Assembly: GCA_024278835.1 (NCBI GenBank)
Contig: JAJRSK010000045.1
Span: 3,444 to 67,443 of the forward strand
DNA length: 64,000 bases
Reading direction: 5' to 3'
DNA from: Campylobacterales bacterium
GTDB taxonomy: Bacteria; Campylobacterota; Campylobacteria; Campylobacterales; QNZT01
Shown here: piece after piece, positions 3,928 to 45,407 of the stretch
Numbering within the stretch: position 1 is the stretch's first letter
Layout of the letters: every line of letters begins with the position of its first letter
Translations under genes and position numbers: made by a program
The notes under the pieces: generated by a model
Seen by the model: the letters and a program-made list of their open reading frames with translations, nothing else
Told to the model about the DNA's origin: nothing
Databases searched by the model: none

Positions 3928-5200
3928 TTACTTCTCCTTTTTTCATCACTTTATATAAAACTTTTTGTGCAAAAATATATTCAACACCGACCATAACACC
4001 ATTCATCATGATAAATCCTATGATGGGATATTCTCCAAACATAAAATAAACTGATAAAAGTACCAATACTAATCTTATACTATTTAGTAAAAGTTCCAAA
4101 TTGTTAAAATTAAATGTTTTGGATAGTAGTGTAATCAAACTAAAATATGCAATCAACATATATGATAAAATCAATATAAAAACAAAGATAACCGATCGAT
4201 CAGAAAGATAAGCAGGCTTAATTAAAAATACCATATACGCCACTAAAAAGGAGGCAAGCAATGCTCCTAGAAAAAACTTCCATTTCACTTTTTGTATTTT
4301 ATCCACATATATCATGATAGCACCCATATCAGAGATATTAAATTTTGATATAAGGTAAGAACGAATCGACGTAATAAAAACCAAAACCAAACCAAAAAAA
4401 CTAAATGCATAACCAAGTTCTGCCATCAATACGGTCATCTTATGTTCCGTTACGTAGATGATAGGATAACGCCCTGCATAAACATAAAGGAAAGTAATGA
4501 GATACGTTATCGATGAAAAGAGTATAAATTGCTTCAGTCTCTTTATCATGATAGTGATATAACGCGTATCATGATACGCACTTTTAACAGCTTCTATCGT
4601 ATATCTTATATTCTCTTTCAATGAAAGTAAAAGCATAAATAAAAATGGCACGATAAAGAGATAAAGATAGATATGATTTAAGTCTATACTCTCTTCACTC
4701 ATGAAAATATATATCAAAAACCCTATTCTTATAAATAAGATAACAAAAGAATTTACGATAATAAATCGAATATTTTTCTTCGCCAAAAGGTTATTCTTAA
4801 AAAAGACCCACATTAACACGGACAGAGCAGACAAATAAATATACTCTTGTTTTATATCTATACTACCGATGCCAAAAGCTTTATCCAAGAGAGAACCTAC
4901 AGCACTATTTGCCAAAACGAGCATCATGATAAAGATTAAGAGTTGTAAAAAAGCGTTGATATACTTGGTTGTTTGATAGATTTGATTATGTCGTAAAAAG
5001 CTTGTTACTATGCCAAATTCAAAAACAAAAGAAAGTAACATGATGATATTAAACGCAGCAGAAAAATCTGCCATCGTCTCTAAATGAAGTTTATACGGTA
5101 TAAGTAGTGCGATAAGATAGGTAGAGAAGCTATAAATCAAACTTGAAAGAAAGTAGAGTGCCCCTTCATTCGTTGCAAGTTTTTTTAGCTTCTCCCTCAC
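3917..5200 (-). CDS. Polysaccharide flippase (Wzx / MOP superfamily)
   Basis: 427 aa and about 12 TM helices, very hydrophobic. Lies between the Wzy-like gene and the sugar-nucleotide genes. Confidence 0.65.
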   Translation of the reverse strand: MREKLKKLATNEGALYFLSSLIYSFSTYLIALLIPYKLHLETMADFSAAFNIIMLLSFVFEFGIVTSFLRHNQIYQTTKYINAFLQLLIFIMMLVLANSAVGSLLDKAFGIGSIDIKQEYIYLSALSVLMWVFFKNNLLAKKNIRFIIVNSFVILFIRIGFLIYIFMSEESIDLNHIYLYLFIVPFLFMLLLSLKENIRYTIEAVKSAYHDTRYITIMIKRLKQFILFSSITYLITFLYVYAGRYPIIYVTEHKMTVLMAELGYAFSFFGLVLVFITSIRSYLISKFNISDMGAIMIYVDKIQKVKWKFFLGALLASFLVAYMVFLIKPAYLSDRSVIFVFILILSYMLIAYFSLITLLSKTFNFNNLELLLNSIRLVLVLLSVYFMFGEYPIIGFIMMNGVMVGVEYIFAQKVLYKVMKKGEVNAV

Positions 5201-40631: not shown

Positions 40632-41129
40632 TTACTTTTTTTTGGGTATCGTTATCTCTAAGACACCATTTTTATAGTTACTCTTTAACTTGTCCATATC
40701 AGCATCATTTGGCATAGAGAGCATACGCATATAACTCCCTACAAAACGCTCCTTCTTGAGAAACTCTTTACCTTTTTCTTCTTTTGCTTTCGTACTTTTT
40801 GCCTCAATTTTTAACATCCCTTTTTCTGTAGTGACCTTAATCTGATTTTCATCACTACCAGGGATATTTGCCCTTAACTGGTAGGCATCACCCACATCCT
40901 TCAAATCAACTGCAGGCGTGGATGCAAAAGAGGAGTCAAACTTACTAAAAAGATCTTCACTTAGCATCCTCTTATGAAATCTTTCAAAGATAGCATCCAT
41001 CTCTTGTTGCATCTTTTTCATCTCTTCAAAAGGGTTATAAGGCTGTACATCTCTCTTTTCAGTCGCCTGCAATGAGGCGATAGAAAGTGAACATACTAAC
41101 AAAAAAGTTCCTAATATTTTTCTCATCAT
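40632..41129 (-). CDS. Hsp20/alpha-crystallin family protein with N-terminal signal peptide
   Basis: Signal MMRKILGTFLLVCSLSIASLQA. Alpha-crystallin domain from AVDLKDVGDAYQLRANIPG to NGVLEITIPKK. Confidence 0.8.
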   Translation of the reverse strand: MMRKILGTFLLVCSLSIASLQATEKRDVQPYNPFEEMKKMQQEMDAIFERFHKRMLSEDLFSKFDSSFASTPAVDLKDVGDAYQLRANIPGSDENQIKVTTEKGMLKIEAKSTKAKEEKGKEFLKKERFVGSYMRMLSMPNDADMDKLKSNYKNGVLEITIPKKK

Positions 41130-41136
41130 ACCCTCC

Positions 41137-41562
41137 TTATTTCACTGTAATTGCTTTTGGTTTGAGGCGCTCTTCTTTCTCCAAGTCAACGACCAAGCGC
41201 CCATCATGATAAGAGGCACTTATCTTCTCCGTATCGATACCATCAGGTACAGAGAAACTCCTCTCAAATCTTCCATAAGAGCTCTCTAAGAGATAATAAT
41301 CCTCTCTTTTGACCTCTTTTTTCATCTCTCTCACTCCAGTTACCGTCAGGATATTATCATCAATCTTCACGCTAATATTCTCCTTTTTCACACCGGGCAA
41401 GTCCACCTCGATATGAAAATCCCCACTCTTCTTCTTGGCCAAGTTCGCAAAAGGCAAGTGACTAGCTACATTGCTCAATACCTCTTTACCTTTTTCATAT
41501 CCCTTCTCCAAACTCTCCTCAATCTCATGTCCTAACTCTTTTGCTTTTTCAATAACTTCCAT
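41137..41562 (-). CDS. Hsp20/alpha-crystallin family small heat-shock protein
   Basis: FHIEVDLPGVKKENISVKIDDNILTVTG...GRFERSFSVPDGID...YHDGRLVVDL. Confidence 0.88.
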   Translation of the reverse strand: MEVIEKAKELGHEIEESLEKGYEKGKEVLSNVASHLPFANLAKKKSGDFHIEVDLPGVKKENISVKIDDNILTVTGVREMKKEVKREDYYLLESSYGRFERSFSVPDGIDTEKISASYHDGRLVVDLEKEERLKPKAITVK

Positions 41563-41572
41563 CTTTCACCTC

Positions 41573-42019
41573 CTATTTAATCTCTATTTTTTTAGGTTTA
41601 TTCTCTTTTTTCTCTAGTTTCGGTATTACTACTTCCAAAACCCCATCTTGGCTCTCTGCGTGAATATTCTCCACATCTACATCTTCAGGGAGCGAAAAAG
41701 AACGGGAGAATTTTCCATAACTACTCTCAATCCTATAATAATCCTCTTGCTTCATCTCATTTTGCACCTTTCTCTCTCCGGAGATAGTGACAACATTGTC
41801 CTTGACATCCACAGAGATATCCTCTTTCTTCATCCCCGGCAAATCAAGCTCCACATGATAGGCAAACTCGCCTTCCCTCGTGTTGACAGCTGGTTCAAAG
41901 TCAGTTAAACTTACCGGTTCTTTTCCCTGCACGAAGCTATCCAGTAAAGAGTTAAAATTACCAAATCCTCTTCTAAATTCTTGTAAATCCCTCGCTGGGT
42001 TATATCGTGTAACATACAT
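41573..42019 (-). CDS. Hsp20/alpha-crystallin family small heat-shock protein
   Basis: FAYHVELDLPGMKKEDISVDVKDNVVTISGER...GKFSRSFSLPEDVD...DGVLEVVIPK. Confidence 0.9.
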   Translation of the reverse strand: MYVTRYNPARDLQEFRRGFGNFNSLLDSFVQGKEPVSLTDFEPAVNTREGEFAYHVELDLPGMKKEDISVDVKDNVVTISGERKVQNEMKQEDYYRIESSYGKFSRSFSLPEDVDVENIHAESQDGVLEVVIPKLEKKENKPKKIEIK

Positions 42020-42127
42020 GTTAAACTCCTTATTATTTTATTTGTCTCCTTGACGCTAGGTAAAGCCCACCGCCAACTTATATCACTAAAACACAATGCC
42101 AAGGCACCGTCTTTTGATGATGTAAGT

Positions 42128-42649
42128 TTAGTCTATATCGCTAAACTTTTCTGCCCCTTTAGTAGCACTTTTTTCTAAAGTTTGATTATTTTTATGAAAA
42201 AAGCTGAGTGACACTATCATGATAGAGATAGCTATTATCAGATACACCGCATAAAGGATATCTTTATAATCCACCAACGCTATCTTAAACACCGTCATCA
42301 ATGCTTCAATGGAGAGTGCGATGATGATGGATATAAGAAACTTTTCCAAAAGTTTATGACTGCCTGTCTCATGTAGAAACTGTTCTCTATAAATCACCTC
42401 ATGTTCAAGGAGATTTTTTGCCAAGTCAAAGATAGCCAAGCCCAATGTTAAAGCAATAGTAGATTTAAAAATCAATTGAAAGATACTGATACCTTCATCT
42501 GCACTATGATTCACAAAATTATAAAATGCGTAAAAGATAAGTATAAGCGAAAATAGGCTCAAGCCGTATCCAATCAAGGCATAAATAGACTTTGTCATAA
42601 TAAGAAAAAACTTTTCTTCTCTTTTTTTAACTTCTTTTATAGTGCTCAT
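42128..42649 (-). CDS. Hypothetical 4-TM membrane protein
   Basis: The start is moved to MSTIKEV (GGAGG SD 5 nt upstream). Hydrophobic helices throughout. Confidence 0.5.
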   Translation of the reverse strand: MSTIKEVKKREEKFFLIMTKSIYALIGYGLSLFSLILIFYAFYNFVNHSADEGISIFQLIFKSTIALTLGLAIFDLAKNLLEHEVIYREQFLHETGSHKLLEKFLISIIIALSIEALMTVFKIALVDYKDILYAVYLIIAISIMIVSLSFFHKNNQTLEKSATKGAEKFSDID

Positions 42650-42698
42650 TTTACCTCCCAGATACAACATAGGAGGAAAATACCCCCTCTATAGACTT

Positions 42699-43583
42699 TT
42701 ATTTTTTCAGATTTGTAATCTTTTCTTTTATTTTTTCAAACCATCCTTTGCCACTCTTGCTACCTGATGATTTTTCTTTGATGATATCAATCTGATCATA
42801 TATAGACTGATACGCTCTTTGCGTACCATAGCCTAAAAGTTCTGCCATCTCTAGTTGATAGGATGCCTCTTCTAAAAGTGATGATAACTTCTTATTTTCC
42901 TTCTCATCTCTCTTTTCATTGCTAGTTAGCTTCTCCGCCTCTTTTAACAACAATGTTGCCCTCAAAATTGGTAACGGGATGATTTCTTCACTAACAACCA
43001 AAGAACTTAATGTCGCTTTTAAAAGTGTTTTTGCCTCTTCAATTTTCCCCTCATCCAACATCGGAGCGATAACTTTGATACTAGCTGGATATGTTGCCAA
43101 TGGTATGGAAGTCGTCGTGATAACAATCTCACTCGCTAGATTTTTTAACAAATGTCTTGCTTTTTGCACTTCACCATTTTTAAGTGCTTTATTGGCATCA
43201 AAAAGTATACTTTTTACTAACTCTTTACTCACAATGACATCAAACTCTTTTTGTGTTATCGCTACTGGTAGTAGTTCCAATGAAGGGTCTCTAGCCACAA
43301 TCATATCGAGCTTACCCGTCACCTTCGCCAATATATCTATCGCCGCTTTTGTTTTATTTTCATCCAAGGACTTTAGTGCCAAGTTAGTATTTTTCAAACT
43401 TTCTAATGCTTCTTGTAGGAGTGCTTTCTTTTTTGCTTGTACTGTATCATACGTGTTACTATCCACCTTAGCCTGCACAGACTTTAACTCTTTTGACCGC
43501 TCCAACTTGATAACATCTGCTTGCAAAGATCCAAGTGCTAAACTCATACCTAAAAGTAGTGATAATCCTAATTTTCTATTCAT
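42699..43583 (-). CDS. Secreted helical-repeat protein, YfdX-like
   Basis: The start is moved to MNRKLGLSLLLGMSLALGSLQA (signal peptide, SD GGAGAG). Repetitive A/L/K-rich helical units resemble YfdX-family periplasmic proteins. The family call is from memory only. Confidence 0.45.
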   Translation of the reverse strand: MNRKLGLSLLLGMSLALGSLQADVIKLERSKELKSVQAKVDSNTYDTVQAKKKALLQEALESLKNTNLALKSLDENKTKAAIDILAKVTGKLDMIVARDPSLELLPVAITQKEFDVIVSKELVKSILFDANKALKNGEVQKARHLLKNLASEIVITTTSIPLATYPASIKVIAPMLDEGKIEEAKTLLKATLSSLVVSEEIIPLPILRATLLLKEAEKLTSNEKRDEKENKKLSSLLEEASYQLEMAELLGYGTQRAYQSIYDQIDIIKEKSSGSKSGKGWFEKIKEKITNLKK

Positions 43584-43676
43584 GTTTCTCTCCCATAAAT
43601 TTATATTTTTTACAGGAGGAATTTTAATAGATATAGTGTGACTTGTCAGCCACCTTAGTAGCACTTTTGAAGAAAA

Positions 43677-44336
43677 TTATAAAGGTAGATTATCTAAAAG
43701 TTTTTGGGTGTCTTTTATCTCGATATTTTTACGTTTTACTTCGATGATACCATCTTTTTTGAGTTGTTGGATATGACGATTGAGTACTTTACGCACCGTA
43801 CCGATAAGCGCAGCAAGTTCTTCATGAGGGAGATTATGGATGAGATTTAACTTAGAAGGGTTGTCTGGATTGATATTTTTAGTGATGAGTTTTAACAATC
43901 TACTAGGCGTGTCGTAAAATGAAAGGTCAAGCGCTAGTTCTTCCATGTCTCTGAGTTGCTGTGAGATGTAGGGAAAAAGAATTTTATTGAAGTTTGCATC
44001 TTCTTGCATCCACTTCTTGACAACATCAATGGGAAAGACAATCACTCTCACATCATCAAGTGCATGCAAAAGATTTTCATGAACCTTGCCATCCAAGAGT
44101 GTTACAACATCATACATGTCACCAGAGGAGAGTATCTTCAATGTCTGCTCTTTAGCATCACTTAGATTTATCTGTGAGACTTTTATTCTGCCTTCAAGCA
44201 CAAAAAAGAACTTTTTTTGCAACTCTTCAGGACTAAAAAGCATCTCTCCTTTTGAAAAGTCTTTAGCTTTACCATACTTTTCTACATCTTGATGGAACTT
44301 ACTTTCTACTATCTCGATAGGAACCATACCCGCCAC
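43677..44336 (-). CDS. Crp/Fnr family transcriptional regulator
   Basis: N-terminal cNMP-binding beta-barrel (FFFVLEGRIKVSQ) and a C-terminal HTH (HEELAALIGTVRKVLNRHIQQLKKDGII). No N-terminal Cys cluster, so it is not a classical FNR. Confidence 0.8.
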   Translation of the reverse strand: MAGMVPIEIVESKFHQDVEKYGKAKDFSKGEMLFSPEELQKKFFFVLEGRIKVSQINLSDAKEQTLKILSSGDMYDVVTLLDGKVHENLLHALDDVRVIVFPIDVVKKWMQEDANFNKILFPYISQQLRDMEELALDLSFYDTPSRLLKLITKNINPDNPSKLNLIHNLPHEELAALIGTVRKVLNRHIQQLKKDGIIEVKRKNIEIKDTQKLLDNLPL

Positions 44337-44390
44337 ACCAACTCCTCATATATGATGGGACTATTCTAGCATAGATTTGATGTTATATCA

Positions 44391-45407
44391 TCAACGAATC
44401 ATCTCATGTAGTAATATCTCGAGGTTAAATATCTGCACACCACTACTACCATTCGCTACAAATAAAATCCCATCTTTTTTTATCAAAGAGAGTCCAGAAG
44501 TATTATCACCTAGGTTTTTACTGCTTATCATGATAGGATTTGTTACATCAGAAATATCGTATAGTTGTAATCCATCCAAGCCGTGTGCTACAAGTAGTTT
44601 AGTATCATTATCTACCAACACAACATCTTGAATTGCTTTGTCTTTTAAAAGAAATTTTCGCTCACTCTGCACTGGGTTACTCACCTCTTCCCCTATCAAA
44701 CCACAGGCACTTACACGATATTGCATCGTCTCATCACCTGAGAGGATAGAAATAGACTTTTCTATTTTATCGATGACTTCAAGTTCAACAGGGTGACTCA
44801 AATCAGAGATATCCAAGAGATGAAATTTACCCTCAGCATCTTCCACATAAAGCGTCATCTCATCATCTGAAAGTATCACATTGTGTGCATCTATCGTCTC
44901 GATGGTAGAGAGTAAATCAGAAGAGATTTTATCATCAAACCCGATAGAGATGATTTCCACGCCATGATTTTTCTCTGCCACAAAGATGATACCATCTGTA
45001 GAAACAGTCAATGCACTGGCGGTACCTTCCGTAGAAACGGTGCCTAGCGTAGCACTCTTTTCTTGTTTTATCACCTCTATCATGATAGTTTCACTATCGT
45101 TTACACCATTCTCAGCATATACATTGTAGGTATAACTCCCTACATCTTTGATAGACAATGTCACTTCTAAAGAACCACTATCAGGGAATTCCCCTACTTC
45201 TTGACCATTGATAAACACCTTAGAACCACTCTCCCCTAGTAATGTAACAGTTGTAAAGTCTTCATCTGTAACGATAGTATTTGTCTCTGTATTGAGAGAG
45301 GCTGCTTTGACTGCTATCTCCTCTTGCTTGGGTGGTGTACTTCTATCCCCACAACCTATCATGATAAGTGCGATTGTAAGTGATGAGGCTAAAATAACTT
45401 TGCGCAT
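44391..45407 (-). CDS. Lipoprotein with LVIVD-like beta-propeller repeats
   Basis: Lipobox LIMIGCG. Repeats of the type LYVEDAEGKFHLLDISDLSHP, LLVAHGLDGLQLYDISDVTNP and ILFVANGSSGVQIFNLE. Confidence 0.5.
   Translation of the reverse strand: MRKVILASSLTIALIMIGCGDRSTPPKQEEIAVKAASLNTETNTIVTDEDFTTVTLLGESGSKVFINGQEVGEFPDSGSLEVTLSIKDVGSYTYNVYAENGVNDSETIMIEVIKQEKSATLGTVSTEGTASALTVSTDGIIFVAEKNHGVEIISIGFDDKISSDLLSTIETIDAHNVILSDDEMTLYVEDAEGKFHLLDISDLSHPVELEVIDKIEKSISILSGDETMQYRVSACGLIGEEVSNPVQSERKFLLKDKAIQDVVLVDNDTKLLVAHGLDGLQLYDISDVTNPIMISSKNLGDNTSGLSLIKKDGILFVANGSSGVQIFNLEILLHEMIR

Follow-up and report, generated by a model that had tools for sequence, protein, structure and literature searches.

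Small heat shock proteins (sHSPs) typically, although not universally, carry a C-terminal I/V-x-I/V motif, and this I-x-I tail ties sHSP dimers into shells. In the two-sHSP systems of the IbpA/IbpB type, tandem sHSPs combine an alpha-crystallin domain with such tails and are controlled by sigma-32. To our knowledge, bacterial sHSPs are treated as cytoplasmic; some of them, such as Lo18 of Oenococcus and Hsp17 of Synechocystis, are associated with membranes without being exported. The endoplasmic reticulum (ER) sHSPs of plants, which have an independent eukaryotic origin, are directed by an N-terminal signal into a secretory, ATP-poor compartment and have kept their C-terminal tail along with a retention signal. 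The periplasmic stress chaperones covered in reviews are Spy, HdeA/B, Skp, SurA and DegP, with no alpha-crystallin protein among them. Spy, HdeA/B and Skp are ATP-independent, and sHSPs are treated there as cytoplasmic only (PMC8144458). A further related system is the tLST (transmissible locus of stress tolerance), or locus of heat resistance (LHR), a single laterally transferred island that includes shsp20, clpK/clpG, shsp, yfdX1, yfdX2, hdeD, trx, kefB, PsiE-like, HtpX-like and degP genes, and the sHSPs of which are described as cytoplasmic (PMC8290217). Here we analyse a locus on the minus strand at positions 40632-44336 of a stretch of 64,000 nucleotides (nt), hereafter the window, from a vent-type Campylobacterales bacterium (assembly GCA_024278835.1, contig JAJRSK010000045.1, positions 3,444 to 67,443). 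Its six co-oriented open reading frames (ORFs) encode a Crp/Fnr-family regulator (Crp), a YfdX protein, a protein with four transmembrane segments (4-TM) and the sHSPs HspA, HspB and HspC. We favour, with a probability of about 0.65, the reading of a chromosomal proteostasis locus whose two promoters are apparently driven by its own Crp/Fnr-type regulator, with HspC as an exported periplasmic holdase.

HspA and HspB resemble the IbpA/IbpB-type pairs in their tandem arrangement, their alpha-crystallin domain and their I-x-I/V tails, and are about 45-50% identical to each other's orthologues in tblastn cross-matches. HspC also retains the alpha-crystallin domain and the N-terminal motif, but differs from these proteins by a Sec signal peptide and by the absence of the C-terminal anchoring tail. 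Moreover, control of the locus appears to lie with a Crp/Fnr-type activator and HspR rather than with sigma-32. With the plant ER sHSPs HspC shares the predicted entry into a secretory, ATP-poor compartment through an N-terminal signal, although it has neither their tail nor their retention signal. Its proposed role, that of a stress-induced holdase in an ATP-less compartment, would be the one played by Spy, HdeA/B and Skp, whereas its fold is unrelated to theirs. Neither a bacterial periplasmic sHSP nor a Crp-controlled hsp20 gene in the phylum was found in the full-text literature, a weak negative since subscription journals are mostly uncovered there.

The hspC start codon is preceded by AGGAGG and lies 7 nt after the hspB stop codon. 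The N-terminus of the protein, MMRKILGTFLLVCSLSIASLQA followed by TEKR, can be parsed into a positive n-region (MMRK), an h-region of 14-15 residues (ILGTFLLVCSLSIA) and the segment SLQA, with A at -1 and T at +1, which together correspond to a predicted Sec signal cleaved by signal peptidase I. A search of 5.8 billion proteins yielded 47 relatives, about 41 of them close (158-175 aa); in all, about 45 proteins of this length have K/R-rich starts, 12-15 hydrophobic residues and A at -1 in common. In the alignment of the orthologues A occupies -1 in 26 of 27, with a variable polar linker after it. Over the first ~22 columns nothing but M, K/R, hydrophobicity and this A is kept, and the mature part from NPFEE onward (NPFEE..KMQQEMD..ACD) is well conserved, with 24 invariant columns. 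Such a combination of a variable signal region and a conserved mature protein is the pattern of evolving cleaved signal peptides. The signal calls on HspC and its orthologues follow a hydropathy heuristic, in which 12-residue Kyte-Doolittle means reach 1.8-3.6 in HspC orthologues against at most 1.5 in three cytoplasmic-type controls (L035, L038 and L076). The same features are present in orthologues read straight from the DNA of metagenome-assembled genomes (MAGs). The signal predicted for the distal Hsp20 in the original prediction is thus borne out by its n-h-c features and by a family of orthologues that have them too, and to judge from these sequences it is genuine and not an artefact of annotation. 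Two other export routes were ruled out: HspC has no [LVI][ASTVI][GAS]C lipobox, its Cys following a Val and being absent from the orthologues, and it has no twin-arginine (RR) motif, which excludes a lipoprotein and a Tat substrate, respectively.

HspC and all of its aligned orthologues end in GVLEITIPKKK, about eight residues past the GVL motif, and have no C-terminal I-x-I anchor. An exhaustive scan was made of 1.84 billion cluster representatives, and the 150 nearest to HspC were examined. A strongly hydrophobic N-terminus is found in 103 of these 150; it resembles a signal in some and forms a longer anchor, with a Q/E-G-Y motif after it, in the others. Beyond GVL, the representatives with such an N-terminus continue for a median of 8-10 residues, and 27 of 102 show an IXI-like motif; for those without it the median is 20, and the motif is present in 35 of 46. 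A tree was built from the last 135 residues only, that is, with the N-termini excluded, and it places HspC in a clade of 43 rows (support 100/95), of which 39 have a hydrophobic N-terminus; of the other four, two are short and fragment-like and two fall just below the hydrophobicity cut-off. HspA and HspB are sisters (99/95) elsewhere on the tree. Because HspC stands in a clade of its own, away from HspA and HspB, it reads as an old and separate lineage, and a recent duplication of either of these genes is ruled out by the tree.

The alpha-crystallin domain of HspC is a normal one, as had been proposed. The HSP20 family (PF00011) scores 72.6 bits with HspC, 84.1 with HspB and 102.2 with HspA (cut-off 20.8). 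In the AlphaFold2 (AF2) model of HspC a low-confidence N-terminal helix, a disordered linker and a helical N-terminal region precede a confident alpha-crystallin sandwich (residues 74-163; means of the predicted local distance difference test over 10-residue blocks, 73-93), and the top Foldseek matches, with probability 1.00, are the solved sHSPs 3gla/3gt6 (Xanthomonas HspA), 5j7n and 1gme (wheat HSP16.9). By their locus titles, the signal- or anchor-bearing relatives belong mainly to Campylobacterota, and further ones to Desulfocapsa (Desulfobacterota), Hydrogenedentota, Verrucomicrobiota, Omnitrophota and a gammaproteobacterial MAG. The genome itself encodes a fourth sHSP, on contig C61 (L004 1012-1779, plus strand), of about 255 aa, in which an N-terminal membrane anchor, MNKNAILGIGFVLLAIIGYQGYLL, and a long coiled linker precede a tail-less alpha-crystallin domain, and many relatives of 190-240 aa in other phyla share this architecture. 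The gene directly after that of the fourth sHSP is thioredoxin-like, as called from its sequence. A separate family of signal-peptide sHSPs (214-255 aa) occurs in Sulfurovum MAGs (L034, L050, L052, L059, L070, L072 and L073), with the N-terminus MFSKKISLFILP...LQA followed after the cleavage site by NDPFFNDPFGDD. Five of the seven end in PHTSSH/Q-V/I, and L050 and L059 instead in NNSMI and KSSMI.

The regulator consists of an N-terminal cyclic nucleotide monophosphate (cNMP)-binding-type domain (PF00027, 47.2 bits) and a C-terminal Crp-type helix-turn-helix (HTH) domain (PF13545, 47.6 bits), and its residues 23-213 align with Crp/Fnr-family structures in the PDB, such as 3h3u and NtcA (2xgx). 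It contains no cysteine, so the FNR-type cysteine cluster is absent and the protein is not an Fe-S (oxygen-sensing) FNR. Of 151 genomes sampled in the order, 62 have orthologues (E<=1e-30), often adjoining sHSP genes. Alignment of the hspA upstream regions of 13 loci disclosed a 16-bp palindrome, TGCTACTAAAGTGGCA (TGCTAC-N4-GTRGCA), of which the window holds two copies. A TANNNT hexamer lies 21-22 nt downstream at 37 of 38 sites, against a background of 5%. With this spacing to the -10 element the centre of the site would fall near -41.5, counted from a transcription start inferred from sequence, which is the position of a class-II CRP/FNR activator. At class-II CRP/FNR promoters, and for NssR of Campylobacter jejuni, a dimer binds a palindrome with a 4-bp centre near -41.5, overlapping the -35 region. 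The present system is alike in the family of the protein, the 4-bp centre and the position, and unlike in its half-site (TGCTAC), the lack of Fe-S cysteines and its chaperone and envelope-stress gene targets.

A position weight matrix (PWM) trained only on other genomes was then applied to the genome of the window. The best site is a perfect one between grpE and dnaK (27.9 bits), and hspA (26.5 bits) ranks second; these two, an HdeD-family gene (22.7 bits) and clpB (20.5 bits) are all in the top six. Lower scores were obtained for two sites flanking a crp paralogue (18.7 bits each) and for yfdX (18.6 bits), and the groES promoter of the genome has no Crp-type operator. In relatives within the order the distance from the site to the start codon is 51-64 nt for dnaK, clpB, a PglG-like gene and three YfdX genes, and about 80 nt for hspA and another YfdX gene; YfdX genes lie downstream of the same operator in G069, G053, G017, G125, G138 and G038. 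In at least 16 of the genomes sampled, which come from five families, the operator directly adjoins the crp stop codon. Control by the adjacent Crp-family regulator, raised in the original prediction as a possibility, is supported by this conserved palindrome and its class-II activator spacing, and by the same evidence the predicted regulon extends well beyond the locus, to dnaK, clpB and the HdeD-like gene among others.

The crp paralogue, on contig C33 (L096 1-8000), is 46% identical to the regulator, and two operator variants of identical sequence, TGCTACTTAGGTGGCA, lie on either side of it. One of them is located ahead of an EI24/CysZ-like membrane gene, which is followed by a UspA-like gene and then by crp2; the other is located ahead of a gene for a cation/H+ antiporter fused to a P-type ATPase. 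Near crp2, the HdeD-family gene, preceded by an operator of its own, is broken into two ORFs that overlap, the result of either a frameshift or a sequencing error. An operator-like site at C33:17464-17479 (20.0 bits, with TATCAT 21 nt downstream) precedes a gene starting MSRKIMDANEAVARIAHK, which looks like the alpha subunit of a 2-oxoacid:ferredoxin oxidoreductase, and may mark a metabolic member of the regulon or be a chance match. In the window, a perfect 18-bp palindrome, TTGATGATATAACATCAA (44377-44394, minus strand), overlaps the stop codon of the LVIVD-repeat lipoprotein gene upstream of crp and lies 8 nt upstream of a TG-extended -10 element (TAGAAT, 44363-44368) ahead of crp. This palindrome may serve autoregulation or be the site of a second regulator. 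For the 16-bp operator palindrome, a sigma-54 reading (TGGCA...) was ruled out, as there is no TTGC at the right distance and the repeat is symmetric.

The Crp-type protein is probably not the only regulator of hspA. The genome contains a cbpA-hspR operon (HspR equivalog NF047375, 113.1 bits; cut-off 105), and an HspR-associated inverted repeat (HAIR)-like element lies at the hspA promoter, its last six bases (42127-42132) overlapping the -10 hexamer at 42125-42130. The original prediction had reported no HAIR element in the hspA leader at 42020-42127; the 6-N7-6 repeat is located just outside that interval. Relatives have TTGAGT/ATGAGT-N7-ACTAAA at the same offset from hspA. Of the 43 operator promoters, 16 have a HAIR-like box, the background being 1.6%; all but two of the 16 belong to hspA or dnaK, where such boxes are enriched ten-fold or more, and related boxes precede grpE and groES. 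A genome-wide count of the simple HAIR-like pattern gave no enrichment over the control (14 vs 44), and it is only the placement at the hspA, dnaK, grpE and groES promoters that is informative. The boxes resemble the HAIR consensus TTGAGT-N7-ACTCAA, but differ in that the right half-site of the candidate box at hspA is ACTAAA and doubles as the -10 hexamer. With HspR encoded and such a box over the hspA -10 element, control of hspA is probably dual, rather than by Crp in place of HspR. The yfdX promoter has the activator site only. No HrcA gene was found in the genome (99.99% complete), nor an hrcA gene ahead of grpE. An RNA thermometer in the ~98-nt hspA leader is unsupported: folding of 42005-42118 gives a z-score of -1.3, and the Shine-Dalgarno sequence is not clearly sequestered.

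Through this arrangement, a dimer of the regulator would bind the palindrome, which has its centre some 41.5 bp upstream of where transcription is inferred to start, and activate two promoters, P1 for yfdX and the 4-TM gene and P2 for hspA-hspB-hspC. Since the HAIR-like box covers the -10 element of P2, HspR would probably repress this promoter until stress relieves the repression, while the activator switches both promoters on. HspA and HspB, a canonical cytoplasmic pair with I-x-I/V tails, would hold clients for two further members of the predicted regulon, DnaK and ClpB. The HspC precursor would be exported unfolded via Sec and cleaved after Ala22 (SLQA/TE), and the mature protein would then act as a holdase that binds unfolding envelope proteins in the ATP-free periplasm. 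Because it has no I-x-I tail, HspC would probably form dimers, or oligomers held by the N-terminal region, rather than tail-tied shells. YfdX and the 4-TM protein would be accessory envelope components of the regulon. The gene content, the domains, the conserved N-terminal signal features, the missing tail, the conservation and spacing of the operator and, at the level of sequence, the members of the regulon are observed. In this scheme we infer from sequence the export, the cleavage and the holdase activity of HspC, the protein that binds the palindrome, activation rather than repression, and induction by stress.

The N-terminal helix of HspC might instead stay uncleaved and serve as a signal-anchor, by which the alpha-crystallin domain would be tethered to the inner membrane on its periplasmic face. 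Many relatives in the same clade (190-240 aa) have longer and more hydrophobic helices with the Q/E-G-Y motif and no A-x-A site, and the sHSP of contig C61 gives the genome an anchor-type protein of its own; but an h-region of only 14-15 residues, the nearly invariant A at -1 and the variable polar linker form the pattern of a cleaved Sec signal, and tethering appears unlikely. Less probable still is a cytoplasmic HspC, the N-terminus of which is no export signal and which is associated with membranes in the manner of lipid-stabilising sHSPs. Some bacterial sHSPs do bind membranes without export, yet proteins of the Lo18/Hsp17 type have no n-h-c signal, while the segment in HspC is fixed in position, begins with positive charge, varies in sequence and keeps A at -1; furthermore, the loss of the I-x-I tail tracks this segment, which fits a change of compartment. 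HspC may also be exported without being a general holdase, and serve as a specific assembly factor or structural adaptor of one envelope complex. The lack of the I-x-I tail that builds the polydisperse oligomers of general sHSP chaperones speaks for such a role, as do several orthologues that stand alone, away from other chaperone genes. We consider it improbable, given the apparent co-transcription or co-regulation of HspC with two canonical sHSPs in 17 loci, the operator shared with dnaK and clpB and the conserved sHSP N-terminal motif that HspC retains; tail-less sHSPs such as human HSPB6 are, moreover, still active holdases.

As to regulation, the palindrome could be bound by another regulator, the adjacent crp being a frequent neighbour or a regulon member. 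HspR is present, and controls overlapping gene sets in the phylum, and genomes of family f10 contain near-perfect sites while lacking a close Crp orthologue, although the f10 sites examined lie mostly away from gene starts. The abutment of the site on the crp stop codon across five families, the sites on both sides of the second crp paralogue, the 5-N4-5-type symmetry and -41.5 position typical of Crp/Fnr activators, and a separate HAIR-like box that accounts for HspR together render another binding protein a rather poor prospect. The preferred reading, an exported holdase in a Crp/Fnr-driven locus, has its own difficulties, and the following points weigh against it. The -3 residue of the HspC signal is Leu, permitted by the (-3,-1) rule though less than optimal, and we know of no ATP-dependent periplasmic partner for the release of clients. 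The f10 genomes combine near-consensus palindromes with no Crp orthologue at E<=1e-30, while family f4 has a Crp orthologue but few sites, so the link between regulator and site is not one-to-one. Finally, YfdX is found near HspC in only 4 of the ~25 Campylobacterota loci fetched. This co-occurrence, together with the lack of yfdX in the two closest relatives, does not support a dedicated pair of HspC and YfdX such as the module of the original prediction implied.

A broader proposal remains tentative, and we place it slightly below even odds: HspC would represent a large undescribed group of Sec-exported or anchored periplasmic holdase sHSPs without the I-x-I tail, wired in Campylobacterales with dnaK, clpB, YfdX and HdeD-like genes into a positive Crp/Fnr-type proteostasis regulon. 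If true, the conserved signal-bearing, tail-less clade would be a new member of the envelope quality-control toolkit, and a natural experiment in sHSP action without the I-x-I tail and without DnaK/ClpB for client hand-over. The shared palindrome, which links HspC to dnaK, clpB, YfdX and HdeD-like genes, would provide a testable stress context for YfdX and the PglG-like membrane proteins. It would also indicate that heat-shock genes come under positive control of the Crp/Fnr type in a phylum noted for repression by HspR and HrcA.

The features of the locus are listed in Table 1. The claim of six genes in one orientation is confirmed, all ORFs being present on the minus strand; that of short junctions is confirmed in part. 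By sequence reading, the yfdX start is best placed at the ATG at 43583, after the ribosome-binding site (RBS)-like GGGAGAG, and that of the 4-TM gene at the ATG at 42649, behind a GGGAGG RBS. With these two starts moved, the gaps amount to 93 nt (crp-yfdX), 49 nt (yfdX-4TM), 108 nt (4TM-hspA), 10 nt (hspA-hspB) and 7 nt (hspB-hspC): the 108 nt before hspA and the short junctions within the hsp genes stand, and the two upstream junctions are longer than claimed. The 93-nt and 108-nt gaps have one predicted promoter each, and the locus is accordingly organized, as far as promoter prediction goes, into two promoters and not into one plain operon.

Table 1. Genes and predicted control elements of the locus, in the order of transcription (positions in the window).
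Feature	Position	Strand	Basis
Crp/Fnr-family transcription regulator, 219 aa	43677..44336	-	Pfam cNMP_binding + HTH_Crp_2
Operator copy 1, TGCTACTAAGGTGGCT, between crp stop and yfdX	43648..43663	-	PWM 18.6 bits
Predicted -10 hexamer TAAAAT, yfdX promoter	43621..43626	-	Promoter scan; conserved 21-nt operator spacing
Secreted YfdX-family protein, 294 aa; predicted signal peptide 43518-43583	42699..43583	-	Pfam YfdX
4-TM protein, 173 aa	42128..42649	-	No Pfam or NCBIfam family
Operator copy 2, TGCTACTAAAGGGGCA, in last codons of 4-TM gene, upstream of hspA	42152..42167	-	PWM 26.5 bits
HAIR-like inverted repeat TTTAGC-N7-ACTAAA, candidate HspR box	42127..42145	-	
Predicted -10 hexamer TAAACT, hspA promoter; contains 4-TM stop codon	42125..42130	-	21 nt from operator
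HspA, cytoplasmic sHSP, 148 aa, C-terminal I-E-I	41573..42019	-	Pfam HSP20
HspB, cytoplasmic sHSP, 141 aa, C-terminal I-T-V	41137..41562	-	Pfam HSP20
HspC, sHSP, 165 aa; predicted Sec-type signal peptide, residues 1-22 (41064-41129)	40632..41129	-	Pfam HSP20

The YfdX protein, scanned as the frame 42699-43664, has a PF10938 score of 119.1 bits (cut-off 26.6) and a signal peptide, MNRKLGLSLLLGMSLALGSLQA, followed by D, and belongs to the YfdX family on both counts; its gene is the only yfdX in the genome. The protein contains one D-E-N-K-T (in SLDENKTKA, in the region 43330-43345 of the window), matching the D/E-x-N-x-S/T N-glycosylation sequon of Campylobacterota, and this sequon-bearing YfdX adjoins a PglG-like gene. 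The 4-TM protein has no Pfam or NCBIfam match even at E=10, but corresponds to the C-terminal membrane domain of proteins of about 285 aa annotated as PglG-like, with 76% identity over 147 aligned residues to residues 136-282 of P0055. The label comes only from source annotations and not from comparison with C. jejuni PglG, and PglG itself has no known function (PMC11389370). The AF2 model of the 4-TM protein consists of four long helices, with no fold match in the PDB (best E 0.26). Two candidate identities were rejected: it is not HdeD, and PsiE had no match in the Pfam scan. Short 4-TM forms adjoin Crp genes in several arrangements, L018, L122, L124 and L125 included. In the broader proposal, an envelope signal might reach the regulon through the 4-TM (PglG-like) protein linked to Crp.

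Strong HspC matches are present in about 17 of the 151 sampled genomes of the order, mostly in two families. The order hspA-hspB-hspC is kept in 17 MAG loci, with crp in the fetched flank of at least 10. On this comparison the conserved unit is crp with hspA-hspB-hspC, and yfdX and the 4-TM gene are variable cassettes. The window has both of them; the two closest relatives (85% and 70% identical) have crp-4TM-hspABC and no yfdX; L006 has crp-yfdX-hspABC and no 4-TM gene; and in L018 hspABC-yfdX-4TM is followed by crp on the opposite strand. In the closest relative (L122, 85% identical), a short frame between crp and the 4-TM gene (4430-4495), MDEKLGLSLHKLEKTWG ending in a stop codon, resembles the start of yfdX (MNRKLGLSLLLG...). 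This remnant points to a deletion of yfdX in the lineage of L122, with the six genes of the window standing in the older order. In a Puniceicoccaceae MAG, an anchored sHSP gene is followed by a YfdX gene.

The flanks of the locus are the same in the two closest relatives, with RNase HII, the ribonucleotide reductase (RNR) beta subunit and an LVIVD lipoprotein on one side and an AAA_14 protein and SulP on the other, and the local G+C content (0.34-0.40) is within that of the flanks (0.35-0.45). For these two reasons the locus is stable, syntenic chromosomal DNA, and neither a mobile element nor the stress island of the original prediction. The gene set echoes the tLST, the heat-resistance island of food-borne Enterobacteriaceae, the origin of which is thought to be environmental. 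Like it, the predicted regulon combines sHSPs, a ClpB-type disaggregase, a secreted YfdX, HdeD-family and other membrane proteins and a Kef-type transporter; a relative has, beside an operator site, a gene that was named cardiolipin-synthase-like from the N-terminal sequence alone. Unlike in the tLST, the genes of the regulon are scattered and joined only by the shared operator, with no single mobile island, the locus itself has no clpK, trx, kefB or degP, and its membrane protein is not HdeD. Membership of the tLST/LHR is ruled out, since the locus has only sHSPs, one yfdX and an unrelated 4-TM gene, in addition to its syntenic flanks and flank-like G+C. Directly upstream of crp, on the minus strand, no operator was seen ahead of the gene for the LVIVD-repeat lipoprotein (44391-45407; lipobox IGC), which is syntenic in L006, L122 and L124.

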